44,853 bases of DNA. Source: a virus (taxonomy: Duplodnaviria > Heunggongvirae > Uroviricota > Caudoviricetes). The DNA lies in IMG/VR virus record IMGVR_UViG_3300045988_031537. One strand, 5' to 3'. The notes below the pieces were generated by a model, which ran no database searches, was not told where the DNA came from, and saw only the letters and a program-made list of their open reading frames with translations. The stretch's first letter is position 1. Each line of letters opens with the position of its first letter. This document shows, piece after piece, positions 26,911 to 39,825 of the stretch. A program made the position numbers and the translations under genes.

Positions 26911-27200
26911 GCCTTGCAACTGACATCCTGAAACGAAGCGGCCTTGCGCCGCTGTCACCGAGAACGAACACCCGAATATACAAGCGCCGCCGTAACGCGC
27001 TGTACCCTGAGATTCAAGCCAGACGCAAAGCAGTCCGCGCCTGCGGGTTCCAGAACGGGAAGGCCGTTAACCTGGGTGAGTTTAAAACACAGGAACGCGC
27101 AGCAATCGCAAATAGGTTATTTAATTACTGGAAATCGCTGGGGTACGATGATATTCCGACGAAGCCACAGAGACGACAATACATCTGGAGACACAAATAA
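26907..27200 (+). CDS. Small protein with AP2-like DNA-binding signature
   Basis: GFQNGKAVNLGEFKTQERAAIANRLF resembles the AP2 domain of HNH endonucleases. Confidence 0.35.
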   Translation: MSLATDILKRSGLAPLSPRTNTRIYKRRRNALYPEIQARRKAVRACGFQNGKAVNLGEFKTQERAAIANRLFNYWKSLGYDDIPTKPQRRQYIWRHK

Positions 27201-27275
27201 ACCGTTATTAAGATAATTCCTACCCGTGGTATCCTCCAGTTACTGCATACTTAATACGCACCTGGAGGATTCATC

Positions 27276-27584
27276 TTGGATAAATTTACTGAAACAGTGA
27301 CAGGCTGGCTTCTCGCTGCCGCGCTAGCCGGAGGGGTAATCGGACTAAGGCAACATAAGTCCGTTATTTCTGGCCCCATCGATGGCTTCTGCTTTATCGC
27401 TACCGGCTTCACTTGCGCCGTATTTGGCGCACCTCTCGCGGCTCAATGGTTCGGCATTACCGGCGAGAGCGAGATAGCTGGCCTCGGATTCATCATTGCC
27501 ATTCTCTGGATGCCTATCTATTCCCGCCTTTCTGGCATCGTCGCCGGAGAATACATCGCACGTCGAGGAGGCCCGGATGAATGA
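27276..27584 (+). CDS. Holin (three predicted transmembrane segments)
   Basis: TTG start 7 nt after GGAGGA; hydrophobic segments; immediately upstream of the lysis genes. Confidence 0.55.
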   Translation: MDKFTETVTGWLLAAALAGGVIGLRQHKSVISGPIDGFCFIATGFTCAVFGAPLAAQWFGITGESEIAGLGFIIAILWMPIYSRLSGIVAGEYIARRGGPDE

Positions 27585-27849
27585 GTTATTCTGGTTCGGC
27601 GGTATGCTGGCAATCGGAGGCACATCGCTGTTTAATGTGTATCACCCCAGCGTTGACGACGGGCTATTTGGTCGGGTGCTCTATATCCTGACCGCTATTG
27701 TCTGCGCTGCCGGGGGCATTCACCTGTTACAGGGCAGCATGTCGCCCACGTTGCCTGAGACATTAATCACATTAGTTGCGCTGCGTCAGATTCGACAGGC
27801 GTGGCTGTCATACGGAGGACATAAGCGTGTCTCGAAACATTTCAGATAA
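27577..27849 (+). CDS. Membrane protein (second holin or antiholin candidate)
   Basis: ATG overlaps holin stop; two hydrophobic segments. Confidence 0.4.
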   Translation: MNELFWFGGMLAIGGTSLFNVYHPSVDDGLFGRVLYILTAIVCAAGGIHLLQGSMSPTLPETLITLVALRQIRQAWLSYGGHKRVSKHFR

Positions 27850-28342
27850 TGAACTTAGCCGTGACTATGTTCGTAGCGTTTTAGATTACAACCCTGACAC
27901 GGGGTTATTCACGTGGCTTAAGACGGTTAGTTCAAAAGCCCCTAAAGGGACTGTGCCAGACGGGAGAGACCCGGACGGGTATAAAGTAATCATGCTCAAA
28001 GGTAAATACCTACGGCAACACAGGCTTGCATGGTTCTATATAACAGGAGAGTGGCCCAGCGGGCAGATAGACCACAGGAACGGGGTAAGAGACGATAATA
28101 GGTTTTGTAACCTGAGAGAATGTGACTCGCAGGACAACAACCGCAACCGTGGGTTATCGCGCAACAACACCAGCGGAGTATCAGGCGTCCATAGACAGCA
28201 AGGGAAATGGATGGTGAGAATCCGTTTGCAAAAAGGTGTGCGCAAGTTTTTCGGTTACTTCGATGACCTTGAGTTCGCTGAGTTAGTAGCTAGCGAAGCC
28301 CGAGATAAATACCACAAGGAGTTCTCTTTATGCGCTCGATGA
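27827..28342 (+). CDS. HNH-AP2 homing endonuclease
   Basis: GTG start after GGAGGA; IDHRNGVRDDNRFCNLRECDSQDN HNH motif plus AP2-like GVSGVHRQQGKWMVRIRLQKGVRKFFGYFD. Confidence 0.65.
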   Translation: MSRNISDNELSRDYVRSVLDYNPDTGLFTWLKTVSSKAPKGTVPDGRDPDGYKVIMLKGKYLRQHRLAWFYITGEWPSGQIDHRNGVRDDNRFCNLRECDSQDNNRNRGLSRNNTSGVSGVHRQQGKWMVRIRLQKGVRKFFGYFDDLEFAELVASEARDKYHKEFSLCAR

Positions 28343-28815
28343 GTGACAACGGCCTCAAGTTTACTGCGGCTTGGGAAGATTTCCGCGGGACCGCCTACCG
28401 CGCGACACCTTCGGAAAAATACTTAACCATAGGCTACGGAAGCTATGGCCCTCATGTGTATGAAGGTAAGACCATCACCCCTGGCCAAGGCCTCCTGTTA
28501 CTGAATCGCGATATGGCTAAGGCCGTAGCTGCGGTTGATGCGGCAGCACACCACTCCCTGACACAGGCGCAGTTCGACGCTGTGTGTGACCTGGTCTATA
28601 ACGCGGGTGCCGGTGTGATTGCGGCTACTACCGGAACCGGTAAGGCTCTGCGTTCTGGTGATATTGCGACACTGCGGGCTAAGCTGGCGCTGTTCATCAA
28701 CCAGAACGGCAAACCATTACTCGGTCTGCGTCGCCGTACCGCCGGGCGTCTTGCGCTGTTCGACGGTAAGCCGTGGCAGGAGGCGGAGGCTATCGGGCGC
28801 GCGGTGAAAGGTTGA
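28330..28815 (+). CDS. Endolysin, phage lysozyme (glycoside hydrolase family 24-like)
   Basis: AAWEDFRGTAYRATP...LTIGYG catalytic region typical of lambda R / T4 E lysozymes. Confidence 0.75.
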   Translation: MRSMSDNGLKFTAAWEDFRGTAYRATPSEKYLTIGYGSYGPHVYEGKTITPGQGLLLLNRDMAKAVAAVDAAAHHSLTQAQFDAVCDLVYNAGAGVIAATTGTGKALRSGDIATLRAKLALFINQNGKPLLGLRRRTAGRLALFDGKPWQEAEAIGRAVKG

Positions 28816-28869
28816 CACCTGAGACTAATCCTACGATACTTAAATCACCTCCTGCTTCATCCCTCTACT

Positions 28870-28904
28870 CTCCAGTTTTATCCCGGCCCTGACCCAGCCG
28901 GGAT
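28870..28904 (+). terminator. Rho-independent terminator
   Basis: ATCCCGGC-loop-GCCGGGAT followed by a 10-T run. Confidence 0.7.
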
Positions 28905-28935
28905 TTTTTTTTTATCTATTTTCCGTAATGACTAG

Positions 28936-28964
28936 TTGACTATTATCCTAGACCCTATTATATT
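28936..28964 (+). promoter_or_regulatory. Sigma70-like promoter, TTGACT-N17-TATATT
   Basis: Hexamers with 17-bp spacing upstream of the 28999 gene cluster. Confidence 0.45.
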
Positions 28965-28998
28965 TACTCCATCAACAACGAGAACGGAGTAGAGAGAA

Positions 28999-29187
28999 AT
29001 GATGACTAAGATTAAGCATACAGATAACTGGGGGGATTACATGGAGATAGAGAAGTGCCGGGACGGGACATTATCTATAACTTGTACCGACGGTGCTAGC
29101 GACGAATCAGTTAGTGTTAACGTGAGTATGGATGATTTTATTATCATTGTTGGACAAGTGGCGGCTTTTTACGGAGATGATAAATGA
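28999..29187 (+). CDS. Hypothetical protein
   Basis: 62-aa ORF with RBS. Confidence 0.45.
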   Translation: MMTKIKHTDNWGDYMEIEKCRDGTLSITCTDGASDESVSVNVSMDDFIIIVGQVAAFYGDDK

Positions 29188-30916: not shown

Positions 30917-31008
30917 ACATCCTGCCTAATCCCCTTATATAATCCCTTTAGACGCGTAGGGCGCGTCTGGTGCGCTCTGATGGTCAGACGCATATGCAAG
31001 GGGATTCT

Positions 31009-31554
31009 ATGAAGCTGAAACTCAAGCAGCCATCGCCAGAGGTGGTGCAAGCTGCACATGAAGAAGCTGTTAGCGCAAACCGTCGCCGTAAACGACCGCG
31101 CGGTAAACAGAGCCTTTATCAATCGTCCCGTAATTCCGCCGCGTTGTGGGACCCGGACTATTGCGACGCGTTAATCGAGTTCTTCGACCGCACGTCATGG
31201 GAACTTGCGCCCACGTCTAAGGGTGACGAACGCCCGCTGATTCAGGATAAGCCACCGTCACTGGCCCGCTTCGCCCTACACATCGGCGTCACTATCCCGA
31301 TTATTAAGCTGTGGCTGCGTGAGATTCCCGCATTTGCCGAAGCCTATGAGACAGCACAGGCATTGGAAGAGGCATACTTCACTGAGACAGGGGCTGCAGG
31401 TATCTCTGCTACGTTTGCCGCTGCGAAACTTGGCCTTGGCAAAGAGAAACCAGTTGAATCCGCCGAAGAAACGGCACCGACTGAGATTATTTTCAGTGTT
31501 GCGGAGCCTGTAGGTAAAATTGTAACAACGAACATGGGTGAGGTAGAGGAATGA
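31009..31554 (+). CDS. Terminase small subunit
   Basis: Position directly upstream of the large terminase; basic N-terminus; stop overlaps the TerL start. Confidence 0.6.
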   Translation: MKLKLKQPSPEVVQAAHEEAVSANRRRKRPRGKQSLYQSSRNSAALWDPDYCDALIEFFDRTSWELAPTSKGDERPLIQDKPPSLARFALHIGVTIPIIKLWLREIPAFAEAYETAQALEEAYFTETGAAGISATFAAAKLGLGKEKPVESAEETAPTEIIFSVAEPVGKIVTTNMGEVEE

Positions 31555-32801
31555 GTATTCAGCTATCCGCGCCGCAGGCACTGTTCCTGAATTGTGACAA
31601 CAAATACAAGGCCTACGTAGGCGGCTTCGGTAGTGGCAAGACGTTTGTCGGCTGCCTTGACCTGCTTACGTTTATGCTCAAGCACCCTGGTACACGCCTG
31701 GGCTACTTCGGCCCTACCTATCCCGCCATCCGTGACATCTTCTACCCGACATTCGAGGAAGCGGCTAACCTGCTCGGCCTTGATGTGCTGGTTAAATCCG
31801 GAGACAAAGAGGTCGTGGTTACTCGCGGTAAGACGGTGCTCGGAACGGTTATCTGTCGTTCTATGGATAACCCCGGTTCGATTGTGGGTTTCAAAATCGC
31901 CGCCGCGGTCGTGGATGAACTGGACGTACTGAGCCGAGAAAAAGCTGAACTGGCATGGAACAAAATCGTCGCCCGTATGCGTCTGGTTATCCCTGGTGTA
32001 ACCAACCACATCTCCGTCACCACGACGCCGGAAGGGTTCAAGTTCGTCTACGCCAAGTTCAAAGAGAACCCGACACCGAGTTACTCAATGGTGCAGGCTT
32101 CCACCCACGAGAACGCGCGATTCCTGCCGCCTGACTACATTAGCTCGCTGACCGAGACTTACCCAGCGCAACTGATTAACGCGTATCTGAATGGGGAGTT
32201 CGTTAACCTGACATCCGGCAGCGTCTACTACGCCTACGACCGACGTAAGCATCGCAGCAAAGAGACAATCCAACCGGGCGACACGCTGTACATCGGGCAG
32301 GACTTCAACGTTACGAAGAACGCCAGCGCCGTGTATGTGCAACGTAAAGACGGCTGGCACGCGGTAGCAGAACTGAAGGGCCTGTTCGATACGCCAGATA
32401 CCGTGCGTGTGATTACCGAGAAGTGGAAGTCGCAAGGCCACCGCATCGTCGTTTACCCGGACGCCAGCGGCAAGAACCGCAAAACCAACTCGGCGTCAAT
32501 CTCCGATATCGCCTTACTACAGCAGGCCGGTTTTGATGTTCGCGCTAAATCCGCCAACCCACCGGTTAAAGACCGTGTTTTAGCCGTGAATACCGCGCTG
32601 GAAAAAGGTAAGCTGTGGGTTAACGACCACTTATGCCCTGAGATAGCGAAGACACTGGAGCAGCAGGCATATGATGATAACGGAGAGCCTGCTAAAGACG
32701 GCGTCATTGACCATATGGCGGATGCTCTCGGCTATCCTGTAGTTTATGAGATGCCGGTGGTTAAGCCAGTAATCAACATCCCGGTGACTTTCGCACTTTA
32801 A
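31551..32801 (+). CDS. Terminase large subunit
   Basis: Walker A-like VGGFGSGKT, ATPase then nuclease-type region. Confidence 0.8.
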   Translation: MSIQLSAPQALFLNCDNKYKAYVGGFGSGKTFVGCLDLLTFMLKHPGTRLGYFGPTYPAIRDIFYPTFEEAANLLGLDVLVKSGDKEVVVTRGKTVLGTVICRSMDNPGSIVGFKIAAAVVDELDVLSREKAELAWNKIVARMRLVIPGVTNHISVTTTPEGFKFVYAKFKENPTPSYSMVQASTHENARFLPPDYISSLTETYPAQLINAYLNGEFVNLTSGSVYYAYDRRKHRSKETIQPGDTLYIGQDFNVTKNASAVYVQRKDGWHAVAELKGLFDTPDTVRVITEKWKSQGHRIVVYPDASGKNRKTNSASISDIALLQQAGFDVRAKSANPPVKDRVLAVNTALEKGKLWVNDHLCPEIAKTLEQQAYDDNGEPAKDGVIDHMADALGYPVVYEMPVVKPVINIPVTFAL

Positions 32802-34334: not shown

Positions 34335-35411
34335 ATGCTATTAACTTTAGCACCACAGGGTTTAGCTATGAGCTTACTTACATCTCTAATCAGCCACCAG
34401 ATATGGCTGCAACGCACCGCATCCGGTGAAGTGAAAGACCTCGCACCGTTCCTTCAGGAGATGCGGGACGAAATCAAACGGCAGGTGCTGTTATTCGGCG
34501 ACGACGGGCGGAGCACCGCGCGGCTGAATAAATTGTTACGCGACCTCGAAGAAGCATTAACAGGACTTACAGGCGGCTGGCAGACGAAGCTGACAGAAGA
34601 CCTTAAGGAACTGGCAGCATATGAAGCGGAGTGGAACGTAAAGACACTGACCGCCAACGTAGACGCGGAATTTGTTACGCCTACCGCTGAACAGGTGTGG
34701 GCCGCTGCCGAGTTTCAGCCGCTCTCATTAAGCGACAAGCCTGTCGACTTCACTAAGCTGATGAATGGTTGGGGCGAAACAGAAGTAGCGCGCCTGGTAA
34801 CTGGCGTTAAGATGGGTTTCGTACAAGGCCAGACCACACGGCAGATTGTTAAGAATGTCGTAGGCGCGGGTGGGCTGGCTGACATCTCTGAGCGAAACGC
34901 AACTACTGTAATTCGCACCGCGCTTTCCCACGTATCCAACGAAGCCCGCAACGAGACGTACCGCCAGAACGACGACATCATCGAGAAGTACGAGTGGGTA
35001 TCAACACTGGACAGCCGTACCAGTACGATTTGCAGAGCCAGAGACGGAATGACGTGGGAAATTGGTAAGGGGCCGATGCCCCCCGCCCATCCGAATTGTC
35101 GAAGTACCACTGCACCGGTAATCAGTTCGGAGTTCGACTTCCTAGATAAAGGTGCAAAACGCGCGGCTAAGGGTGCGGACGGCGGTATGCAGGTAAGCGC
35201 AGACACCACCTATTACGAGTTCCTGAAACAGCAACCGGCATGGTTCGTGGATGAAGCACTCGGACCTACCCGCGGTGCTATATTCAGGAATAGTGGGATA
35301 TCCCCAGAGGAATTCCGGGTAATATCCGTCGACGCTTTTGGTAGACCTTTAACCTTGAAGGAGATGGCGGCGTTAGATAACAGGGTTGCTGAATATCTTA
35401 GGTCGGTATAA
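34335..35411 (+). CDS. Head morphogenesis protein (Mu F / SPP1 gp7-like)
   Basis: PPAHPNCRS motif; position after portal. Start may be ATG 34368. Confidence 0.7.
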   Translation: MLLTLAPQGLAMSLLTSLISHQIWLQRTASGEVKDLAPFLQEMRDEIKRQVLLFGDDGRSTARLNKLLRDLEEALTGLTGGWQTKLTEDLKELAAYEAEWNVKTLTANVDAEFVTPTAEQVWAAAEFQPLSLSDKPVDFTKLMNGWGETEVARLVTGVKMGFVQGQTTRQIVKNVVGAGGLADISERNATTVIRTALSHVSNEARNETYRQNDDIIEKYEWVSTLDSRTSTICRARDGMTWEIGKGPMPPAHPNCRSTTAPVISSEFDFLDKGAKRAAKGADGGMQVSADTTYYEFLKQQPAWFVDEALGPTRGAIFRNSGISPEEFRVISVDAFGRPLTLKEMAALDNRVAEYLRSV

Positions 35412-35535
35412 AGTATATCTAGTAGCTAGCTTTGGTCGGTGAACTACTAAAAATAGAGAAAGAATATAACCCCATGAAGGTATGCCTATCTCTGGCATCG
35501 ACCAATCTTCATGGGGTTTTCTTATAGGGTTTAAT

Positions 35536-36105
35536 ATGGGAATTGTTTTTGGTGTGGGTATTAACGATGTTTCACCAATAAGTTGCGGAGGGGTGCATAT
35601 AGCGTCCTACGCCGTATGGAAGAACATGTTAAAGAGGTGCTACGACAAGAAATGGCAGCAAAGAAACAGAACTTATATAGGTTGCCGCGTGTCGGACGAT
35701 TGGTTGGTGTTCAGTAATTTCAAGGTCTGGTTTGATGATTTTTATGTACCTGGGTGGCAGATAGATAAGGATTTACTTAACCCGGGAAATAAGGTTTACG
35801 ATGCTTCTAACTGTGTTTTCATCCCTAAATCCCTCAATACTTTCCTAACAGCCCACGACGCTCTTCGAGGCGAACACCCACTCGGCGTACATTTCCATAA
35901 ACAAAAGAAAAGATTCATCGCTCAAGTATCCGTGGATGGCGTATCTGAACAAATAGGCGCTTACGAAACCGCTCAAGAGGCACACGTAGCATGGTTTCAT
36001 AGAAAAATTGAATTAGCATATGAATACAAAGGTCTTTGCGATAGCATAGACCCACGCCTTTTCGAAGGCGTCTTACGTAAGATTAACTCAATGAAAGAGG
36101 TTTAG
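35536..36105 (+). CDS. HNH-AP2-like homing endonuclease, possibly degenerate
   Basis: AP2-like GVHFHKQKKRFIAQVSVDGVSEQIGAYETAQEAHVAW; HNH-like GWQIDKDLLNPGNKVYDASNCVFIPKSLN with Lys where His is expected; preceded by a 12-bp-stem hairpin at 35468-35517. Confidence 0.5.
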   Translation: MGIVFGVGINDVSPISCGGVHIASYAVWKNMLKRCYDKKWQQRNRTYIGCRVSDDWLVFSNFKVWFDDFYVPGWQIDKDLLNPGNKVYDASNCVFIPKSLNTFLTAHDALRGEHPLGVHFHKQKKRFIAQVSVDGVSEQIGAYETAQEAHVAWFHRKIELAYEYKGLCDSIDPRLFEGVLRKINSMKEV

Positions 36106-36167: not shown

Positions 36168-36569
36168 GTGTCTGGCTCTGGTGAGAACGTGGTGTTTATT
36201 GAAGACGAAAGTGTACTAGGTACACCGGTAGATGATATGCCGTTTGCAGATAAAACCGGTATCGCACTCCCTGCGGCGGGTATGCTTTACGAGGTTCCGT
36301 ATCTGGCTGACGCTGGAGATGTGTATTTCTCTGTACAACCGCAGGGCGCTGAACTGGCGGACGGAAGTGCGACTATCACTGTCGAGGTTAAGGCGGGTAA
36401 AGCGCCGTATGTACTGACCTGGTACAAAGACGGGAAGGAAGTGGTGAACGCCCCGGAAGAGGCTCTGTCTCTGACTGTTAATGCGGCGGGTGAATACTTC
36501 GTTAAAGTTACTGATGCCGATGGCGTAGAGACGGTTAGCAAGGCGGCGAAGGTTACTAAGCCAGAATGA
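36168..36569 (+). CDS. Ig-like domain protein
   Basis: PYVLTWYKDGKEV...AGEYFVKVTDADG resembles Ig/Big-type domains. Confidence 0.45.
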   Translation: MSGSGENVVFIEDESVLGTPVDDMPFADKTGIALPAAGMLYEVPYLADAGDVYFSVQPQGAELADGSATITVEVKAGKAPYVLTWYKDGKEVVNAPEEALSLTVNAAGEYFVKVTDADGVETVSKAAKVTKPE

Positions 36570-36571
36570 TA

Positions 36572-36597
36572 AAAGGCCCCATAATGGGGCCTTAGTT
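36572..36597. terminator. Bidirectional terminator hairpin
   Basis: AAGGCCCCAT-AA-TGGGGCCTT between convergent genes. Confidence 0.55.
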
Positions 36598-37119
36598 TTA
36601 TTTAAATCGCGCAGGCATTAACACCATAAAGGCCGTGTTTGAAAATTGTATTTTGCATCCTCTGGTTTGGTCCTGGAAATCAAAACGAGCAATTTCATTT
36701 TTGTATGCCTTAGAAATCTTGTACGCGTCTGCCAAATAACGCAGGGTGAACCCTATACTATCGACAACACCCGGTGTGATGTGCGCCACGCGTCTCCAGT
36801 CAGGAAAGTTTCCTTCTACAACATCTACCGGAAGTGTACATATAAGCGCACGATTATCGTCATAGAAAGATACACTGCCGTTGTCGTGGTTTACCTCCGC
36901 GTAGTTAAATTTAGAAGGCTCTCTCCCTTTGATGTCTATGAGAGTCCCTTTCTCAACGTTGGTCTTCACATTGTCGCAGAACAATCTATGACCGTCCGTA
37001 GACACTATCAATCCTTCAGGGTCTATGTAAAAAGCGTTCAAATAGTAGCGAACATCATTTTTAGCCCTGCATATTTTCGCCCCTACATACGCAGGGAAAG
37101 TAATTACTGTAGTAACCAT
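36598..37119 (-). CDS. Truncated DNA polymerase III beta sliding clamp (DnaN)-like protein
   Basis: NDVRYYLNAFYIDPEGLIVSTDGHRLF and EGNFPDWRRV match E. coli DnaN domain II (QDVRYYLNG...VATDGHRLA; DGRFPDYRRV); C-terminus AFMVLMPARF resembles YVVMPMRL. Only 173 aa versus about 366 for DnaN. Confidence 0.6.
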   Translation of the reverse strand: MVTTVITFPAYVGAKICRAKNDVRYYLNAFYIDPEGLIVSTDGHRLFCDNVKTNVEKGTLIDIKGREPSKFNYAEVNHDNGSVSFYDDNRALICTLPVDVVEGNFPDWRRVAHITPGVVDSIGFTLRYLADAYKISKAYKNEIARFDFQDQTRGCKIQFSNTAFMVLMPARFK

Positions 37120-37146
37120 TTCTCATCTCCTGTTTAAGTTAACTGA

Positions 37147-37175
37147 ATAGTACCCTATTATGTTGGTGCGCGCAA
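37147..37175 (-). promoter_or_regulatory. Sigma70-like promoter, TTGCGC-N17-TACTAT, for the clamp-like gene
   Basis: Same family as the promoters at 1439 and 24103. Confidence 0.45.
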
Positions 37176-37448
37176 ACTATTTATTTACGTATTCCAGTTA
37201 TTCCACTCAATTGTAAATGTTGGAATAAACTATTCGAATATTTGACTTTTCACTAAAAATATGATAAGCTCCACCTGAGCTTGTGAAGTATGAGCAAGCG
37301 ACCGCGGCGCGGCAGGTAACGGAGCTGGACGTAAGTCCTGAGTGTAGTTACGCTGACGCGTTCGGAAGGGCCATACTCTATTGCTTGTGTAAAAAGTAAC
37401 TGGTTTACTGAGATTACGCCGTTTCTATGTTTAAATGATAAGGACTAG

Positions 37449-37475
37449 CGCCCCGCTTTAAGGCGGGGCTTTACT
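37449..37475 (+). terminator. Terminator-like hairpin
   Basis: GCCCCGC-TTTAAG-GCGGGGC followed by TTTACTTAT. Confidence 0.45.
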
Positions 37476-37493
37476 TATCGAGAAAGGGGAAAC

Positions 37494-37880
37494 ATGAATC
37501 TTAAAGCAACTGTCGTAGCCGGAGCATGTTTCGTCGTCCTAGCCTACGCACACGGCATCTATCAATACCGCAGCGGCTGGGGTGAAGGCCGTGCTAATCT
37601 CGTTTCGCAGCAACAGCAGAAAGCACAGGCTGAGCTGACGAAGAAAACACAACGGCAGCAGCAGGATGAATCAAAGGCCGCCGCCGCTGACAACGAAGGC
37701 AAGACGAAATCAGAGGTGATTACCCGTGAAGTCGTTAAGTACATTAAAACGCCTGGCCGCAGCGTGTGCACTTTCGACGATGCTCGCGTCCTGCTCAAGT
37801 CCCACGCCGTTGCCAACGCCAATTCCATCCCCGGATACGACGATGATGCAGCCGCCGTGCAAACTGGCACCGCCAAGTAG
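37494..37880 (+). CDS. i-spanin (Rz-like)
   Basis: N-terminal transmembrane segment, Gln-rich coiled coil, embedded o-spanin ORF. Confidence 0.6.
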   Translation: MNLKATVVAGACFVVLAYAHGIYQYRSGWGEGRANLVSQQQQKAQAELTKKTQRQQQDESKAAAADNEGKTKSEVITREVVKYIKTPGRSVCTFDDARVLLKSHAVANANSIPGYDDDAAAVQTGTAK

Positions 37881-37989
37881 CGACGCTGACGAGGATTTAG
37901 CTATCGACGTTCAGAACGCCGAATGTGTACGGCAACTGAGACTGAAAGTGTTCATGTTGCAGGATTACGTGAGGAATATTCTGGAATAG
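37726..37989 (+). CDS. o-spanin (Rz1-like lipoprotein), overlapping and extending past the Rz gene
   Basis: GTG start after GAGGTG; lipobox LASC; proline-rich mature region. Confidence 0.55.
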   Translation: MKSLSTLKRLAAACALSTMLASCSSPTPLPTPIPSPDTTMMQPPCKLAPPSSDADEDLAIDVQNAECVRQLRLKVFMLQDYVRNILE

Positions 37990-38071
37990 TTGCCTTGTAT
38001 GTTGGAATAATTTATTCTTGACATGTAAATCCGGGAGGCCCGGATTCCAACGTCCAGGGGACATACTGACT

Positions 38072-38773
38072 ATGAATCGTTTTTTACACTATCCGTTCCA
38101 GGAAGAAGCTGGGGCAGAAGATAAATCTGGCGGTGGCGACGCTCCAAAAATGTTCACAGCCGAAGAAGTTCAGGCGCTGATTGAGAAAGAAGTTGCCGGA
38201 CTTAAGGCCAATCAGGAAGCATTGCTGGCGGAGAAGAAAGAAGCCGCCCGTAAAGCAAAAGAGGCCGAAGAGGAACGTCAGCGCGCGCACCAGGAGGCGC
38301 TAAAAGCCGCCGGTAAGATGGACGAGTTCGAAAAGACGATTCGTAGCCAGTATGACCCGGTGTTAGCCGAGAAAGATGGTCGCATCTCCAAAATGGCTGA
38401 GCGCATCCTCGGCAGCGAACGTAAAGCGGTGTTAGGCTCTTTCGCAGGTGACTTTATTACCCCGGAAGCAGTAGACATTCTTGCTCCGTTCGTTAAGACT
38501 GAGTTCGAAGGTGATGATGTGGTTACTAAGTTTGTTGGGCCAGACGGCGGTGTAATCACGACTGACCCTGAACAGTTCCGCAAATACCTGCGCGAACACA
38601 AAGCGTTTTCGCATTTGATTAAAGCAAATGCAGCTTCCGGCGGCGGGGCTTCCGGTGGCAAAGGCGGCGGGGCCGCACCAGCGTTTAAAGACATGAGTGA
38701 AGCGGAGCGTTTAGCTCTGTATAAATCGAACCCTGCCGAATTTGAACGGCAACTTAAAGCCCTGAGGAAATAA
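38072..38773 (+). CDS. Scaffolding protein
   Basis: Highly charged, predicted helical (...EALLAEKKEAARKAKEAEEERQRAHQEALKAAG...); directly upstream of the major capsid gene. Confidence 0.6.
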   Translation: MNRFLHYPFQEEAGAEDKSGGGDAPKMFTAEEVQALIEKEVAGLKANQEALLAEKKEAARKAKEAEEERQRAHQEALKAAGKMDEFEKTIRSQYDPVLAEKDGRISKMAERILGSERKAVLGSFAGDFITPEAVDILAPFVKTEFEGDDVVTKFVGPDGGVITTDPEQFRKYLREHKAFSHLIKANAASGGGASGGKGGGAAPAFKDMSEAERLALYKSNPAEFERQLKALRK

Positions 38774-38775
38774 TA

Positions 38776-39825
38776 ATGGCAATTACCACTATCGGCGATA
38801 TCGTAACTGGCAACATCCCGGTCCTGGCGTCTTATATGACCGAGGACCCGGTAGAAAAAACCGCGTTCTTCCAGTCCGGTATTCTTACCCCTACTCCGTA
38901 CGCCGCCGAGATTGCCCGCGGCCCGTCCAACGTCGCTAACATTCCTTTCTGGAAAGCGATTGATACTTCTATCGAGCCTAACTACTCGAACGACGTATAC
39001 CAGGACATCGCTACCCCGCGTAACGTGCAAACCGGCGAGATGATGGCGCGCGTTGCATACCTGAACGAAGGTTTTGGCCAGGCGGACCTGACTGTCGAAC
39101 TGACCAGCCAGAACCCGCTGCAATCCGTAGCGTCCCGTCTGGATAACTTCTGGCAGCGCCAGGCGCAACGCCGTCTGATCGCTACCGCGCTCGGTCTGTA
39201 CAATGACAACGTAGCCGCTACCGACGCATACCACGAGCAGAATGACATGGTTGTAGACGTGTCTGCTACTCTGGGCTTCGACGCAGGTGCGTTCATCGAC
39301 GCCACCCAGACTATGGGTGATGCGCTGATGGGCAACGGCGGAGAAGTGCTGGGTGCTATCGCGATGCACAGCTTCGTTTATGCGCAGGCCCGTAAGCAGC
39401 AGCTTATTGACTTCATCAAAGACGCCGACAACGACACACTGTTCGCCACCTACCAGGGTTACCGCGTGATTGTTGACGACAGCATGACCGTAGTCAACAC
39501 CGGCTCTAGCCGTAAGTTCATCTCCATTATCTTCGGTAACGGCGCTATCGGTTACGGTGAAGGTTCTCCGTCCAACCCGTTGGAATACGAGCGCGAAGCG
39601 TCTCGCGGCAACGGCGGTGGGGTAGAAACCCTGTGGACCCGTAAGACCTGGTTGCTGCACCCACTGGGCTACAGCTTTACCAGCGCAGTAATCACCGGTA
39701 ACGGCACCGAGACCGTCGCACGTTCTGCTTCATGGCAGGACCTGGCGAACGCCTCCAACTGGAACCGCGTTGTTGAGCGTAAGCATGTACCGATTGCCTT
39801 CCTGGTAACTGGTGTCGGTGCTTAA
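38776..39825 (+). CDS. Major capsid protein
   Basis: 349 aa after the scaffold gene, followed by a strong terminator. Confidence 0.75.
   Translation: MAITTIGDIVTGNIPVLASYMTEDPVEKTAFFQSGILTPTPYAAEIARGPSNVANIPFWKAIDTSIEPNYSNDVYQDIATPRNVQTGEMMARVAYLNEGFGQADLTVELTSQNPLQSVASRLDNFWQRQAQRRLIATALGLYNDNVAATDAYHEQNDMVVDVSATLGFDAGAFIDATQTMGDALMGNGGEVLGAIAMHSFVYAQARKQQLIDFIKDADNDTLFATYQGYRVIVDDSMTVVNTGSSRKFISIIFGNGAIGYGEGSPSNPLEYEREASRGNGGGVETLWTRKTWLLHPLGYSFTSAVITGNGTETVARSASWQDLANASNWNRVVERKHVPIAFLVTGVGA

Follow-up and report, generated by a model that had tools for sequence, protein, structure and literature searches.

Intronless homing by free-standing endonucleases of phages, such as the Seg and Mob proteins of T4, is established behaviour, and in T4-like phages it was reportedly described by Liu and co-workers in 2003. 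According to two reports (PMC2988022; PMC2790892), genes of the SegF, SegG and MobE type spread by break repair with co-conversion of the flanking sequence, and differences in the target protect the carriers. In the Xanthomonas oryzae phages Xp10, OP1 and Xop411, HNN-AP2 enzymes are encoded by dispersed free-standing genes that were gained and then decay, and the boxes HRLAW, WP, D/H, DNR and NLRE were defined for such phage enzymes in the same study (Lee et al., 2007, PMC2248197). For Jerseyvirus, homing endonucleases are mentioned in general terms as accessory genes in PMC8425127.

The stretch of DNA analysed here (44,853 nt, IMG/VR record IMGVR_UViG_3300045988_031537; hereafter the window) is a Kagunavirus-like (Guernseyvirinae) coliphage genome; it showed about 90% identity across about 78% when compared with the nearest records. 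Positions 27827–28342 very probably hold a free-standing HNH(HNN)-AP2 homing endonuclease gene that has homed into the 5′ end of an endolysin gene. Genes were assigned as ORF calls with strong family matches (Pfam and PHROG), for which a chance test was unneeded. The lysis cassette was shown to contain:

27276–27584, plus strand: holin of 102 aa with a TTG start (phrog_2359, 1.2e-28)
27577–27849, plus strand: second holin-family membrane protein of 90 aa with an ATG start (phrog_2508, 4.3e-32)
27827–28342, plus strand: HNH(HNN)-AP2 gene encoding 171 aa, with a GTG start (PF13392, phrog_99)
28330–28815, plus strand: GH24 (T4/P22-type) endolysin of 161 aa with an ATG start (PF00959, 85.3 bits)

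A sequence-only reading of this DNA had described the 27276 holin and the 27577 membrane-protein gene as set apart from the 28330 endolysin by an HNH gene overlapping both neighbours, and all of these coordinates were confirmed: the HNH GTG is located 23 nt within the second holin gene, and the HNH stop codon TGA (28340–28342) lies 13 nt into the endolysin ORF in a different frame. Because translation of the HNH gene begins within the 3′ end of the second holin gene, its product is predicted to be made late, together with the lysis genes. The holin contains at least two hydrophobic segments, and the context of its TTG start and GGAGGA ribosome-binding site was identical in relatives L001–L004. 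The second membrane protein has a hydrophobic segment at residues 30–48 and its gene ends with TAA at 27847–27849; in relatives it is annotated as class I/II holin-like protein or antiholin. The endolysin is of the soluble type, a hydrophobic N-terminal segment being absent. Scans for promoters and terminators gave weak consensus matches, and a clear lysis-cassette promoter was not found.

Homology of the 27827 ORF to endonucleases, which the same reading had assumed, was borne out by a match to HNH_3 (PF13392) at residues 65–106 (47.9 bits compared to a cutoff of 24.8), by a match to phrog_99 at 1.4e-62 and by similarity to I-HmuI (PDB 1u3e), detected at E = 0.0075 with the single sequence and at 7.7e-9 with the family profile. 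In an alignment of 57 homologues, D82, H83, N91 and N95 were invariant and N104 and N107 nearly invariant. The boxes HRLAW, WP, DNR and NLRE are present in the 171-aa protein (QHRLAWFY...WP...IDHRNGVRDDNRFCNLRE), and CX2C dyads are absent. The AP2 part of the label found support as well. The Pfam AP2 model gave no match to the single protein or to its C-terminal 58 residues, even at E = 10; many full-length homologues carry PF00847, and positions 109–166 of the family profile matched the AP2 domains of WRI1, TEM1 and AtERF1 (3.8e-9 to 2.5e-3). Besides, the C-terminal domain of an AF2 model of the protein (pLDDT 91) consists of strands 121–124, 127–133 and 139–145 followed by a helix at 148–166, and it superposes on the AP2 domain of AtERF1 (1gcc) at 1.2 Å with a probability of 1.00 (Foldseek). 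The first 10 residues of the model are placed outside the fold because their mean pLDDT is 59. A tblastn search for paralogues of this HNH elsewhere in the window gave nothing significant; a second HNH, of an unrelated family, is present elsewhere in the window.

The dN/dS of the HNH core was 0.04–0.06, which suggests that the function of the HNH protein has been retained. Such strong purifying selection (about 0.05) could also be read as a mark of domestication, the protein having become, instead of a selfish nuclease, a DNA-binding or lysis-timing regulator acting through AP2, or a translational coupler for the endolysin. This reading is also favoured by the translational overlap with both neighbour genes and by the finding that, in several phage groups, the gene is always associated with an endolysin gene. 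However, more than 90% of the close relatives lyse their hosts without the gene, the catalytic D-H...N...N residues are intact, and an actively homing element is also expected to be under purifying selection. We consider domestication to be very improbable.

Alignments to the empty-site sequences of Ro145c2, VIPECOMC04, sidste and VT223 showed a net insertion of 500 nt (27856–28355, plus strand) after approximately codon 10 of the ancestral endolysin ORF. The insertion is bounded by an imperfect direct repeat (27842–27856 and 28342–28356) encoding S-D-N-G/E-L, and the locus has two translation starts:

27814–27855, plus strand: ancestral endolysin start, now that of the HNH gene (GGAGG at 27814–27818, GTG at 27827, about 10 codons, VSRNISDN-E-L)
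28316–28332, plus strand: new endolysin start in the 3′ end of the HNH gene (AAGGAG at 28316–28321, 8-nt spacer, ATG at 28330)

In HNH-free relatives the endolysin begins at exactly the same GTG, with VSRNISDNGLHFTAA. As read from this arrangement, the HNH gene now uses the ribosome-binding site and GTG of the endolysin for its translation. The sequence-only reading of the HNH gene as an insertion in the lysis cassette is supported and can be refined: rather than simply separating two genes, the HNH gene lies within the 5′ part of the original endolysin ORF, whose start it has taken over. In its last 27 nt the element provides a fresh ribosome-binding site and ATG, with codons (MRSMSDNGL) that duplicate the lost ones in diverged form, and the N-terminus of the endolysin in the window has been replaced, reading MRSMSDNGLK. 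Because the element supplies a replacement start and codons, the endolysin stays intact and neither an intron nor an intein is needed. The overlap ...EFSLCAR(stop) / ATGCGCnCGATnAG is kept in 65–77% identical homologues located in other phage backgrounds.

An Rfam search of 27000–29100 revealed no family, introns included, that reached the threshold. A group I intron around the HNH gene was rejected, as there was no Rfam intron match and the endolysin ORF runs uninterrupted from an ATG of its own. Two sub-threshold sRNA matches at 28867–28912 were taken as chance. A literature search on the junction yielded only general mentions of homing endonucleases, and none of the papers found described start capture.

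The HNH gene was found in 2 of 172 Kagunavirus-like and 14 of 354 Jerseyvirus-like records. The endonuclease-free holin-endolysin junctions that the earlier reading had proposed to look for are present in the remaining records, about 500, where the endolysin begins at the same GTG/ATG and the empty sites align base for base on both sides of the insertion. The carriers are the Escherichia phages vB_EcoM_SHAK7858 (OR594183) and vB_Ec_DUEC01 (PQ799475) and, in 14 records, Salmonella Jerseyvirus phages (S102–S142, vB_StyS-sam and dunkel), which have the same junction; the HNH proteins of both groups showed 93–96% aa identity to that of the window. In these relatives the same gene has already been annotated as HNH or homing endonuclease. 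In addition, a second HNH lineage (49% aa identity) occupies the same site in 18 records from both genera, and the overall occupancy of the site is about 7% of approximately 520 records.

This distribution also bears on a role in packaging, in which the protein would help the terminase in the manner of HK97 gp74. That it is an HNH protein of a siphophage and that the terminase genes (30970–32801) begin 2.6 kb downstream would fit such a role. However, its neighbours are a holin and an endolysin rather than terminase or portal genes, its HNH subfamily is another one (HNH_3 with AP2), and it is missing from more than 90% of the relatives, including most of those with the same packaging genes; a packaging function is hardly credible.

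For the sequence shared between the genera, the following two regions were distinguished:

27911–28455, plus strand: cross-genus module of about 545 nt, comprising the HNH core and the endolysin 5′ end (95–98% nucleotide identity)
28356–28460, plus strand: HNH-linked co-conversion tract in the endolysin 5′ end, encoding ...KFTAAWEDFRGTAYRATPSEKYLTIGYGSYGPHVYEG (the first approximately 126 nt of the endolysin are in the module)

Pairwise comparison of the window with Salmonella phage dunkel showed 53% identity for the second holin gene, 95.2% for the HNH core, 98.4% for the endolysin 5′ end and 75.6% for the rest of the endolysin, and the N-terminal approximately 25 codons of the HNH gene, themselves mosaic, showed 66% identity. 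The dS of the module was 0.19–0.30 compared to 0.8–1.2 for the rest of the endolysin. For the linked endolysin tract alone dS was 0.04–0.13, compared to 0.19–0.30 for the HNH gene, a suggestive difference that rests on one to three substitutions. The second holin gene of the window is closer to that of HNH-free Ro145c2 (94%) than to that of HNH-positive SHAK7858 (88%). The tract at 28356–28460 showed 98.4% identity to Salmonella phages dunkel and sam and 61–77% to the empty-site alleles of both genera, and it was at least 95% identical in all 18 type-1 HNH-positive records. The right end of the linked tract differs in all three Kagunavirus carriers, namely the window, SHAK7858 and DUEC01. This pattern is a signature of homing with co-conversion, from which we infer cleavage activity and a target site.

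The patchy presence of the HNH gene could in principle reflect loss, the gene being ancestral to the lysis cassette and deleted in most relatives. Recombination across the short imperfect repeat of SDNGL codons that flanks the insert would delete the HNH gene precisely, the HNH-free VT223 and LSPA1 with the linked endolysin allele resemble deletion products, and the presence of two HNH lineages with a common site and architecture suggests a single old insertion. However, the module is 95–98% identical between genera, where the flanking genes are 53–76% identical, and its dS is 3–5 times below that of the adjacent endolysin, which vertical descent and loss cannot give; only about 7% of roughly 520 records are occupied. 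Losses probably also happen, as in the usual gain-loss cycle, but they do not explain the copy in the window, and ancestral presence followed by deletion is considered very unlikely.

Judged by the established behaviour of free-standing phage endonucleases such as the T4 Seg and Mob proteins, the homing of the HNH gene into the endolysin gene probably proceeds as follows. In a mixed infection, the enzyme would nick or cut the DNA of an endonuclease-free relative within or near the first approximately 130 nt of the endolysin gene. Repair off the carrier genome would then transfer the HNH gene along with adjoining endolysin sequence of variable length, and this flanking allele, with its many, mostly synonymous, differences, would make the carrier immune to cleavage. 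The tract at 28356–28460 is a candidate region for both the target site and the immunity to cleavage. The immunity determinant is only a candidate because four HNH-free genomes (VT223, LSPA1, BUCT823 and phiWAO78-1) carry all or part of the linked endolysin allele, and the HNH-positive lineage L016/L017 lacks it and keeps a GHYG-type allele. A single determinant common to both HNH lineages, the GYG-S-YGP-H-V codons at 28432–28458, could not be made firm, and it was weakened by these same four HNH-free genomes and the one HNH-positive lineage.

Homologues of the HNH protein at 63–77% identity were found in three further phage backgrounds, in each case with a PF00959 gene immediately downstream. 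Tentatively, we propose that this HNH-AP2 lineage might specialize in parasitizing GH24 endolysin genes in several unrelated phage groups, which is possible rather than probable. It would enter the coding sequence, with no need of an intron or intein, by what we call start capture and replacement: the element would be fused to the ribosome-binding site, start codon and first codons of its victim, and its 3′ end would supply that victim with a portable ribosome-binding site, an ATG and copies of the N-terminal codons. Should start capture prove general, homing endonuclease genes would have a third means of residing within essential ORFs, and the lysis cassette would be a recurrent recombination hotspot linking phages of Salmonella and E. 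coli.

The spanin genes were found outside the lysis cassette, 8.7 kb from the endolysin stop:

37450–37469, plus strand: terminator-like GC hairpin just upstream of the spanin pair
37494–37880, plus strand: Rz-like i-spanin of 128 aa (phrog_2536, 2.1e-54)
37726–37989, plus strand: Rz1-like o-spanin of 87 aa with a GTG start (phrog_5672, 4.7e-30; phrog_1267, 2.3e-18)

As expected of the Rz type, the i-spanin contains a single N-terminal transmembrane segment (hydrophobic residues 1–19) and a periplasmic domain, and the o-spanin a lipobox, LASC (Cys23), followed by a proline-rich mature part of 65 aa with 10 Pro and 3 Cys. Reading in another frame, the o-spanin gene begins within the i-spanin gene and continues beyond it, so that the pair is a normal two-component spanin of overlapped architecture. 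Coordinates and phrog matches agreed with the earlier description of an overlapped Rz/Rz1-like pair at 37494–37989, and the pair does lie, as described, between a clamp-like gene (36598–37119, minus strand) and the scaffold gene (38018–38773; phrog_206, 8e-55). No spanin adjacent to the endolysin was found, the 1.7 kb downstream of it containing no lipobox ORF. The spanin genes point in the same direction as the scaffold and capsid genes downstream of them and are presumably expressed with the late structural genes. The same overlapped pair is annotated as i-spanin/o-spanin in Snoke and Ivi, and spanins apart from holin and endolysin have been stated for phage Schulenberg (PMC6763661). The remote position is a conserved layout of the Guernseyvirinae that is unrelated to the endonuclease, the pair being located upstream of the scaffold gene in every member of the subfamily. 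Like the window, Snoke, Schulenberg, Ivi and K1ind2 have an i-spanin with a transmembrane segment and a proline-rich o-spanin upstream of the scaffold gene. The spanin genes of lambda adjoin the holin and endolysin genes, whereas those of the window and the Guernseyvirinae do not.

These results are of practical use chiefly for annotating and engineering phages. For annotation, carriers have their true endolysin start at the ATG within the 3′ end of the HNH gene, and non-carriers at the GTG/ATG overlapping the holin gene. Some public records were found to mis-call the endolysin start, which is extended upstream in Ro145c2 and truncated in phiWAO78-1. Kagunaviruses are in use as small chassis phages, and for engineering the 500-nt element is dispensable and its clean removal probable. 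The understanding of lysis and of homing endonucleases is unchanged. The HNH gene is a selfish, mobile element and an ordinary kind of phage parasite. The locus is a compact natural case in which phages of Salmonella and E. coli have undergone gene conversion: its co-conversion tracts are graded, some alleles are empty but converted, and two endonuclease lineages compete for one site. It could serve as a simple system for measuring homing in siphophages.

Among the known systems, SegF, SegG and MobE of T4-like phages resemble the HNH gene of the window in being located outside any intron or intein and in being present or absent between collinear phages. They differ in that the T4-like genes are normally intergenic with starts of their own, whereas the HNH gene of the window is fused to the start of its target and brings a substitute. 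The Seg proteins are GIY-YIG enzymes, in contrast to the HNH enzyme of the window; MobE is an HNH enzyme but is not known to carry an AP2 domain. Among solved structures, I-HmuI, an HNH nicking enzyme of Bacillus phage SPO1, is the closest in sequence to the catalytic half, but it is encoded in a group I intron and differs in its C-terminal DNA-binding region, while the HNH gene of the window has no intron. The HNN-AP2 enzymes of Xp10, OP1 and Xop411 share the two-domain architecture and the boxes and likewise lack CX2C zinc dyads, with Xp10 p50 matching the HNH protein at 46% aa identity; they are located in different phages at different insertion sites, and a link to an endolysin start is not reported for them in PMC2248197. 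The closest counterparts are the elements in SHAK7858, DUEC01 and the Jerseyvirus carriers, which show the same 23-nt overlap with the second holin gene, the same 13-nt overlap with the endolysin and the linked endolysin 5′ allele. They differ from the window in the backbone phage and in the right end of the co-converted tract, and the captured start of the Jerseyvirus elements reads ATG-SNRNISDNGL compared to GTG-SRNISDN in the window.

Four mutually overlapping genes, all on the forward strand, were found in the lysis region, and a spanin pair was found elsewhere in the window:

27276-27584 (+): holin, TTG start, 102 aa (phrog_2359, 1e-28)
27577-27849 (+): second holin, ATG start, 90 aa (phrog_2508, 4e-32)
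27827-28342 (+): HNH gene, GTG start, 171 aa (HNH_3 PF13392, 47.9 bits against a cutoff of 24.8; phrog_99, 1e-62)
28330-28815 (+): endolysin, ATG start, 161 aa (Phage_lysozyme PF00959, 85 bits)
37494-37880 (+): Rz-like spanin (i-spanin), N-terminal hydrophobic segment (phrog_2536, 2e-54)
37726-37989 (+): Rz1-like spanin (o-spanin), lipobox LASC and proline-rich mature part (phrog_5672, 5e-30)

The HNH gene overlaps the second holin gene by 23 nt at its GTG start and the endolysin ORF by 13 nt at its stop. The spanin pair is flanked by the minus-strand clamp-like gene and the scaffold gene (phrog_206, 8e-55), and no lipobox-bearing ORF was found within 1.7 kb downstream of the endolysin. The sequence-only reading had placed an endonuclease homologue between the holins and the endolysin, overlapping both, and the spanins between the clamp-like and scaffold genes; since gene calls, family matches, overlaps and spanin place all agree, every element of this observation was confirmed, and its interpretation is correct. 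The remote spanin location is an already known family norm with no connection to the endonuclease, and has been published for phage Schulenberg (PMC6763661). The 2.5-kb clamp-spanin-scaffold region matched 485 phage records, for the most part Jerseyvirus and Kagunavirus, and the curated records of Snoke and Ivi contain the same two overlapping ORFs at the same place, labelled i-spanin and o-spanin.

The clamp-like gene (36598-37119, -) carries the PHROG label 'RusA-like Holliday junction resolvase' (phrog_3007, 4e-36), also found, as a copied label, in several GenBank records. In the curated Snoke record this gene showed an HHpred probability of 99.88 to the E. coli Pol III beta clamp, Pfam gave only a weak DNA_pol3_beta_2 match (E = 0.006), and the PHROG label looks wrong. 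A bidirectional terminator-like hairpin (36573-36593) lies between the decoration and clamp-like genes, where Snoke has an annotated terminator, and a GC-rich hairpin with a T-tract (37450-37469) is found 25 nt before the start of the i-spanin gene. Another HNH endonuclease gene (35482-36105, +; phrog_953, 3e-79; 207 aa), whose family is unrelated to that of the lysis-cassette gene, is flanked by a head-morphogenesis gene (34335-35411) and an Ig-like decoration gene (36168-36569), so the genome contains at least two endonuclease genes. An extra ~570-nt HNH homing endonuclease gene is present in the clamp-spanin-scaffold region of fEg-Eco19 (OL539727) and VIPECOMC04 (PQ423993) and absent from the window (region matching 36400-38900). 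Besides, an HslV-family peptidase gene was located directly upstream of the first holin gene in VIPECOMC04, RP180, SETP13 and VT223 (loci L004, 1698-2138, and L006, 430-864), where the window has just a 75-nt spacer (27201-27275); this position is another variable slot at the lysis-cassette edge.

By megablast, the window belongs to the K1G-like E. coli siphophages, genus Kagunavirus, in Guernseyvirinae. The closest public entries showed ~90% identity across ~78% of the 25 kb tested; the phage duplicates no deposited genome and forms a separate member of Kagunavirus. The HNH gene was present in only two of the 172 records matching window 27000-29000, SHAK7858 and DUEC01, both copies already being annotated as HNH/homing endonuclease; the remaining records have endonuclease-free junctions, with alignments spanning a gap of ~500 nt at the HNH position. 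The SHAK7858 record (OR594183.1, vB_EcoM_SHAK7858) carries the taxonomy line Autographiviridae; Kayfunavirus and a myovirus 'M' in its name; its sequence is collinear with Kagunavirus siphophages, so this labelling is probably a deposit error. By tblastn, the same HNH protein (93% identity) was found in Salmonella Jerseyvirus phages (14 records: S102-S142, vB_StyS-sam, dunkel), where its gene likewise separates the second holin gene from the endolysin; a Jerseyvirus (dunkel) lysis-region query matched 354 records, of which only 14 carry it. In 18 records from both genera, this exact site is filled by a second HNH lineage with 49% identity (carriers SETP13, SETP7, AG11, SB3, STP03, pink, ZCEC5 and BUCT825). 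Counted as records, RefSeq/GenBank duplicates included, site occupancy is roughly 7%, and public databases already contain labelled, near-identical copies from this site. With the gene missing from more than 90% of relatives, the HNH protein is unlikely to have been domesticated to regulate lysis, and a packaging role does not fit its patchy distribution or its neighbours, the terminase genes being at 30970-32801.

Comparison with empty sites showed how the gene is inserted. The Kagunavirus endolysin of empty sites starts at the same GTG as the window HNH ORF and reads VSRNISDNGLHFTAA..., with a GGAGG ribosome-binding site 8 nt upstream common to empty sites and window. From this GTG, the window ORF encodes VSRNISDNEL and then HNH sequence (SRDYVRSVLDYNPDTG...); the Jerseyvirus carriers do likewise from their own start (MSNRNISDNGL-). 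The carrier endolysin begins at a new ATG (28330) and reads MRSMSDNGLKFTAAW..., with AAGGAG upstream at 28316-28321, both lying inside the last HNH codons (...KEFSLCAR*). The net insertion is 500 nt (27856-28355), its ends marked by an imperfect direct repeat encoding SDNGL. The HNH gene thus lies inside the endolysin ORF and has taken the endolysin start. The structure model was poorly ordered only at its two ends, over the first ten residues (mean pLDDT 59) and a few at the C-terminus (47), which fits a captured leader and an overlap tail outside the enzyme proper. No intron-like RNA was detected around the gene. Endolysin starts are called inconsistently in public records: in Ro145c2YLVW (locus L003, 2277-2816) the ORF is annotated 51 nt upstream past the conserved GTG, and in phiWAO78-1 (locus L013, 1054-1353) just the last 99 codons are annotated.

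DNA identity between the window and dunkel was 53% in the second holin gene, 66% in the first ~50 nt of HNH-specific sequence, 95.2% in the HNH core (27911-28329), 98.4% in the first 126 nt of the endolysin and 75.6% in its remainder. Among HNH copies dS was 0.19-0.30, within and between genera alike, and that of the endolysin 3′ part between genera was 0.8-1.2. An ancestral HNH gene that was widely lost fails as an explanation, contradicted by the cross-genus identity of the module and by the low dS. The second holin gene of the window showed 94% identity to an HNH-free phage versus 88% to other Kagunavirus carriers, and the three Kagunavirus carriers each return to local endolysin sequence at a different place (YEG|K, YEGQ|T and YEGQKITKGQG|). 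This pattern of identity, dS and breakpoints is what would be expected of repeated gene conversion with co-conversion of flanking tracts. The HNH dN/dS of 0.04-0.06 indicates strong purifying selection, and the gene therefore codes for a functional protein. The N-terminal ~18 codons of HNH-specific sequence (27858-27910) are mosaic: Kagunavirus copies read SHDYVRSVLEYNPDTG, as in the metagenomic homologue P0002, and Jerseyvirus copies of this lineage read TADKLREVLHYDPDTG, identical to the second lineage, which suggests recombination between the two lineages at their shared site.

The 128 nt after the insert showed at least 95% identity across all 18 carriers of this lineage and ~75-77% in most other matched records, many differences being synonymous (e.g. 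EKYLT, GAGAAGTACCTGACG versus GAAAAATACTTAACC). A few HNH-free genomes have this linked allele whole or in part with nested left ends, starting at the junction in VT223 and LSPA1, at FTAAW in BUCT823 and at TPSEKY in phiWAO78-1; such genomes may have lost the gene across the flanking repeat, may have undergone conversion without acquiring it, or may be related to the original home allele. The two HNH lineages are each linked to GGCTACGGAAGCTAYGGCCCTCATGTG (28432-28458, GYGSYGPHV), where empty sites read GGNTAYGGNCACTAYGG... (GYGHYG-). Since this segment differs between carriers and empty sites, it and the conserved TTCACCGCCGCG and AACGAGAAGTAC stretches of empty alleles form a candidate recognition or cleavage site, but one HNH-positive metagenomic lineage retains GHYG. 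Among carriers, dS at 28342-28455 was 0.04-0.13 versus 0.19-0.30 in the HNH core, a difference that lacks significance, with only 1-3 substitutions behind it, and that might point to constraint at the nucleotide level on a putative immunity tract.

The closest non-identical HNH homologues from a large protein collection come from contigs representing three other phage backgrounds, and in all of them the gene lies directly upstream of a PF00959 lysozyme gene. P0002 (77% identity; contig L014) starts with a local endolysin-like leader, MPRNI-, and its conserved ...SLCAR*/ATGCGCACGAT overlap gives MRTMS-; P0007 (65%; L016) starts with MRQISD-, and the same ...SLCAR* overlap gives MRTIS-. P0012 (63%; L019) has its own start and a stop 1 nt before an untouched endolysin ATG (MPRNISDNGLHF...), and therefore represents a plain intergenic state. 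In one metagenomic phage lineage an IS200/IS605-type element directly follows the HNH-endolysin pair, with Y1 transposase and TnpB in one contig (L017, 2117-3963) and TnpB only in another (L018, 1102-2205); these TnpBs match OrfB_IS605 and Cas12f1-like_TNB, and in the sister contig L016 that place is taken by a DUF2570 Rz-like gene.

D82, H83, N91 and N95 were invariant in a 57-sequence alignment. The HRLAW, WP, DNR and NLRE boxes are present and CX2C dyads absent, as in the HNN-AP2 endonucleases of Xanthomonas phages (PMC2248197); p50 of Xanthomonas phage Xp10 showed a 46% match. The family profile matched I-HmuI (7.7e-9, positions 34-122) and plant AP2/ERF domains (3.8e-9 to 2.5e-3, positions 109-166). 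In the AlphaFold model (pLDDT 91.1), the C-terminus forms three strands and a helix and superposes on AtERF1, TEM1 and ERF96 at 1.0-1.8 A (Foldseek probability ~1.00). Profile and model thus bear out the AP2 label first given to the gene, a domain that the Pfam AP2 model alone did not detect in the single sequence. The analogy with I-HmuI raises the possibility that the enzyme nicks DNA instead of cutting both strands.

Taken together, 27827-28342 is very probably an active free-standing homing endonuclease gene. It would be expressed late from the lysis transcript via the captured endolysin start; in mixed infection, the enzyme would cut or nick endonuclease-free endolysin alleles, and repair would copy the gene in along with its protective flanking tract. 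No account was found in the literature of start capture with a portable replacement start, nor of a consistent link between this HNH lineage and GH24 endolysin genes; both are refinements within a known mechanism. The element behaves like the free-standing Seg/Mob endonucleases of T4 (PMC2988022, PMC2790892), it fits the picture of phage nuclease genes marking recombination boundaries (PMC10448857), and homing endonucleases are included among Jerseyvirus accessory genes (PMC8425127).
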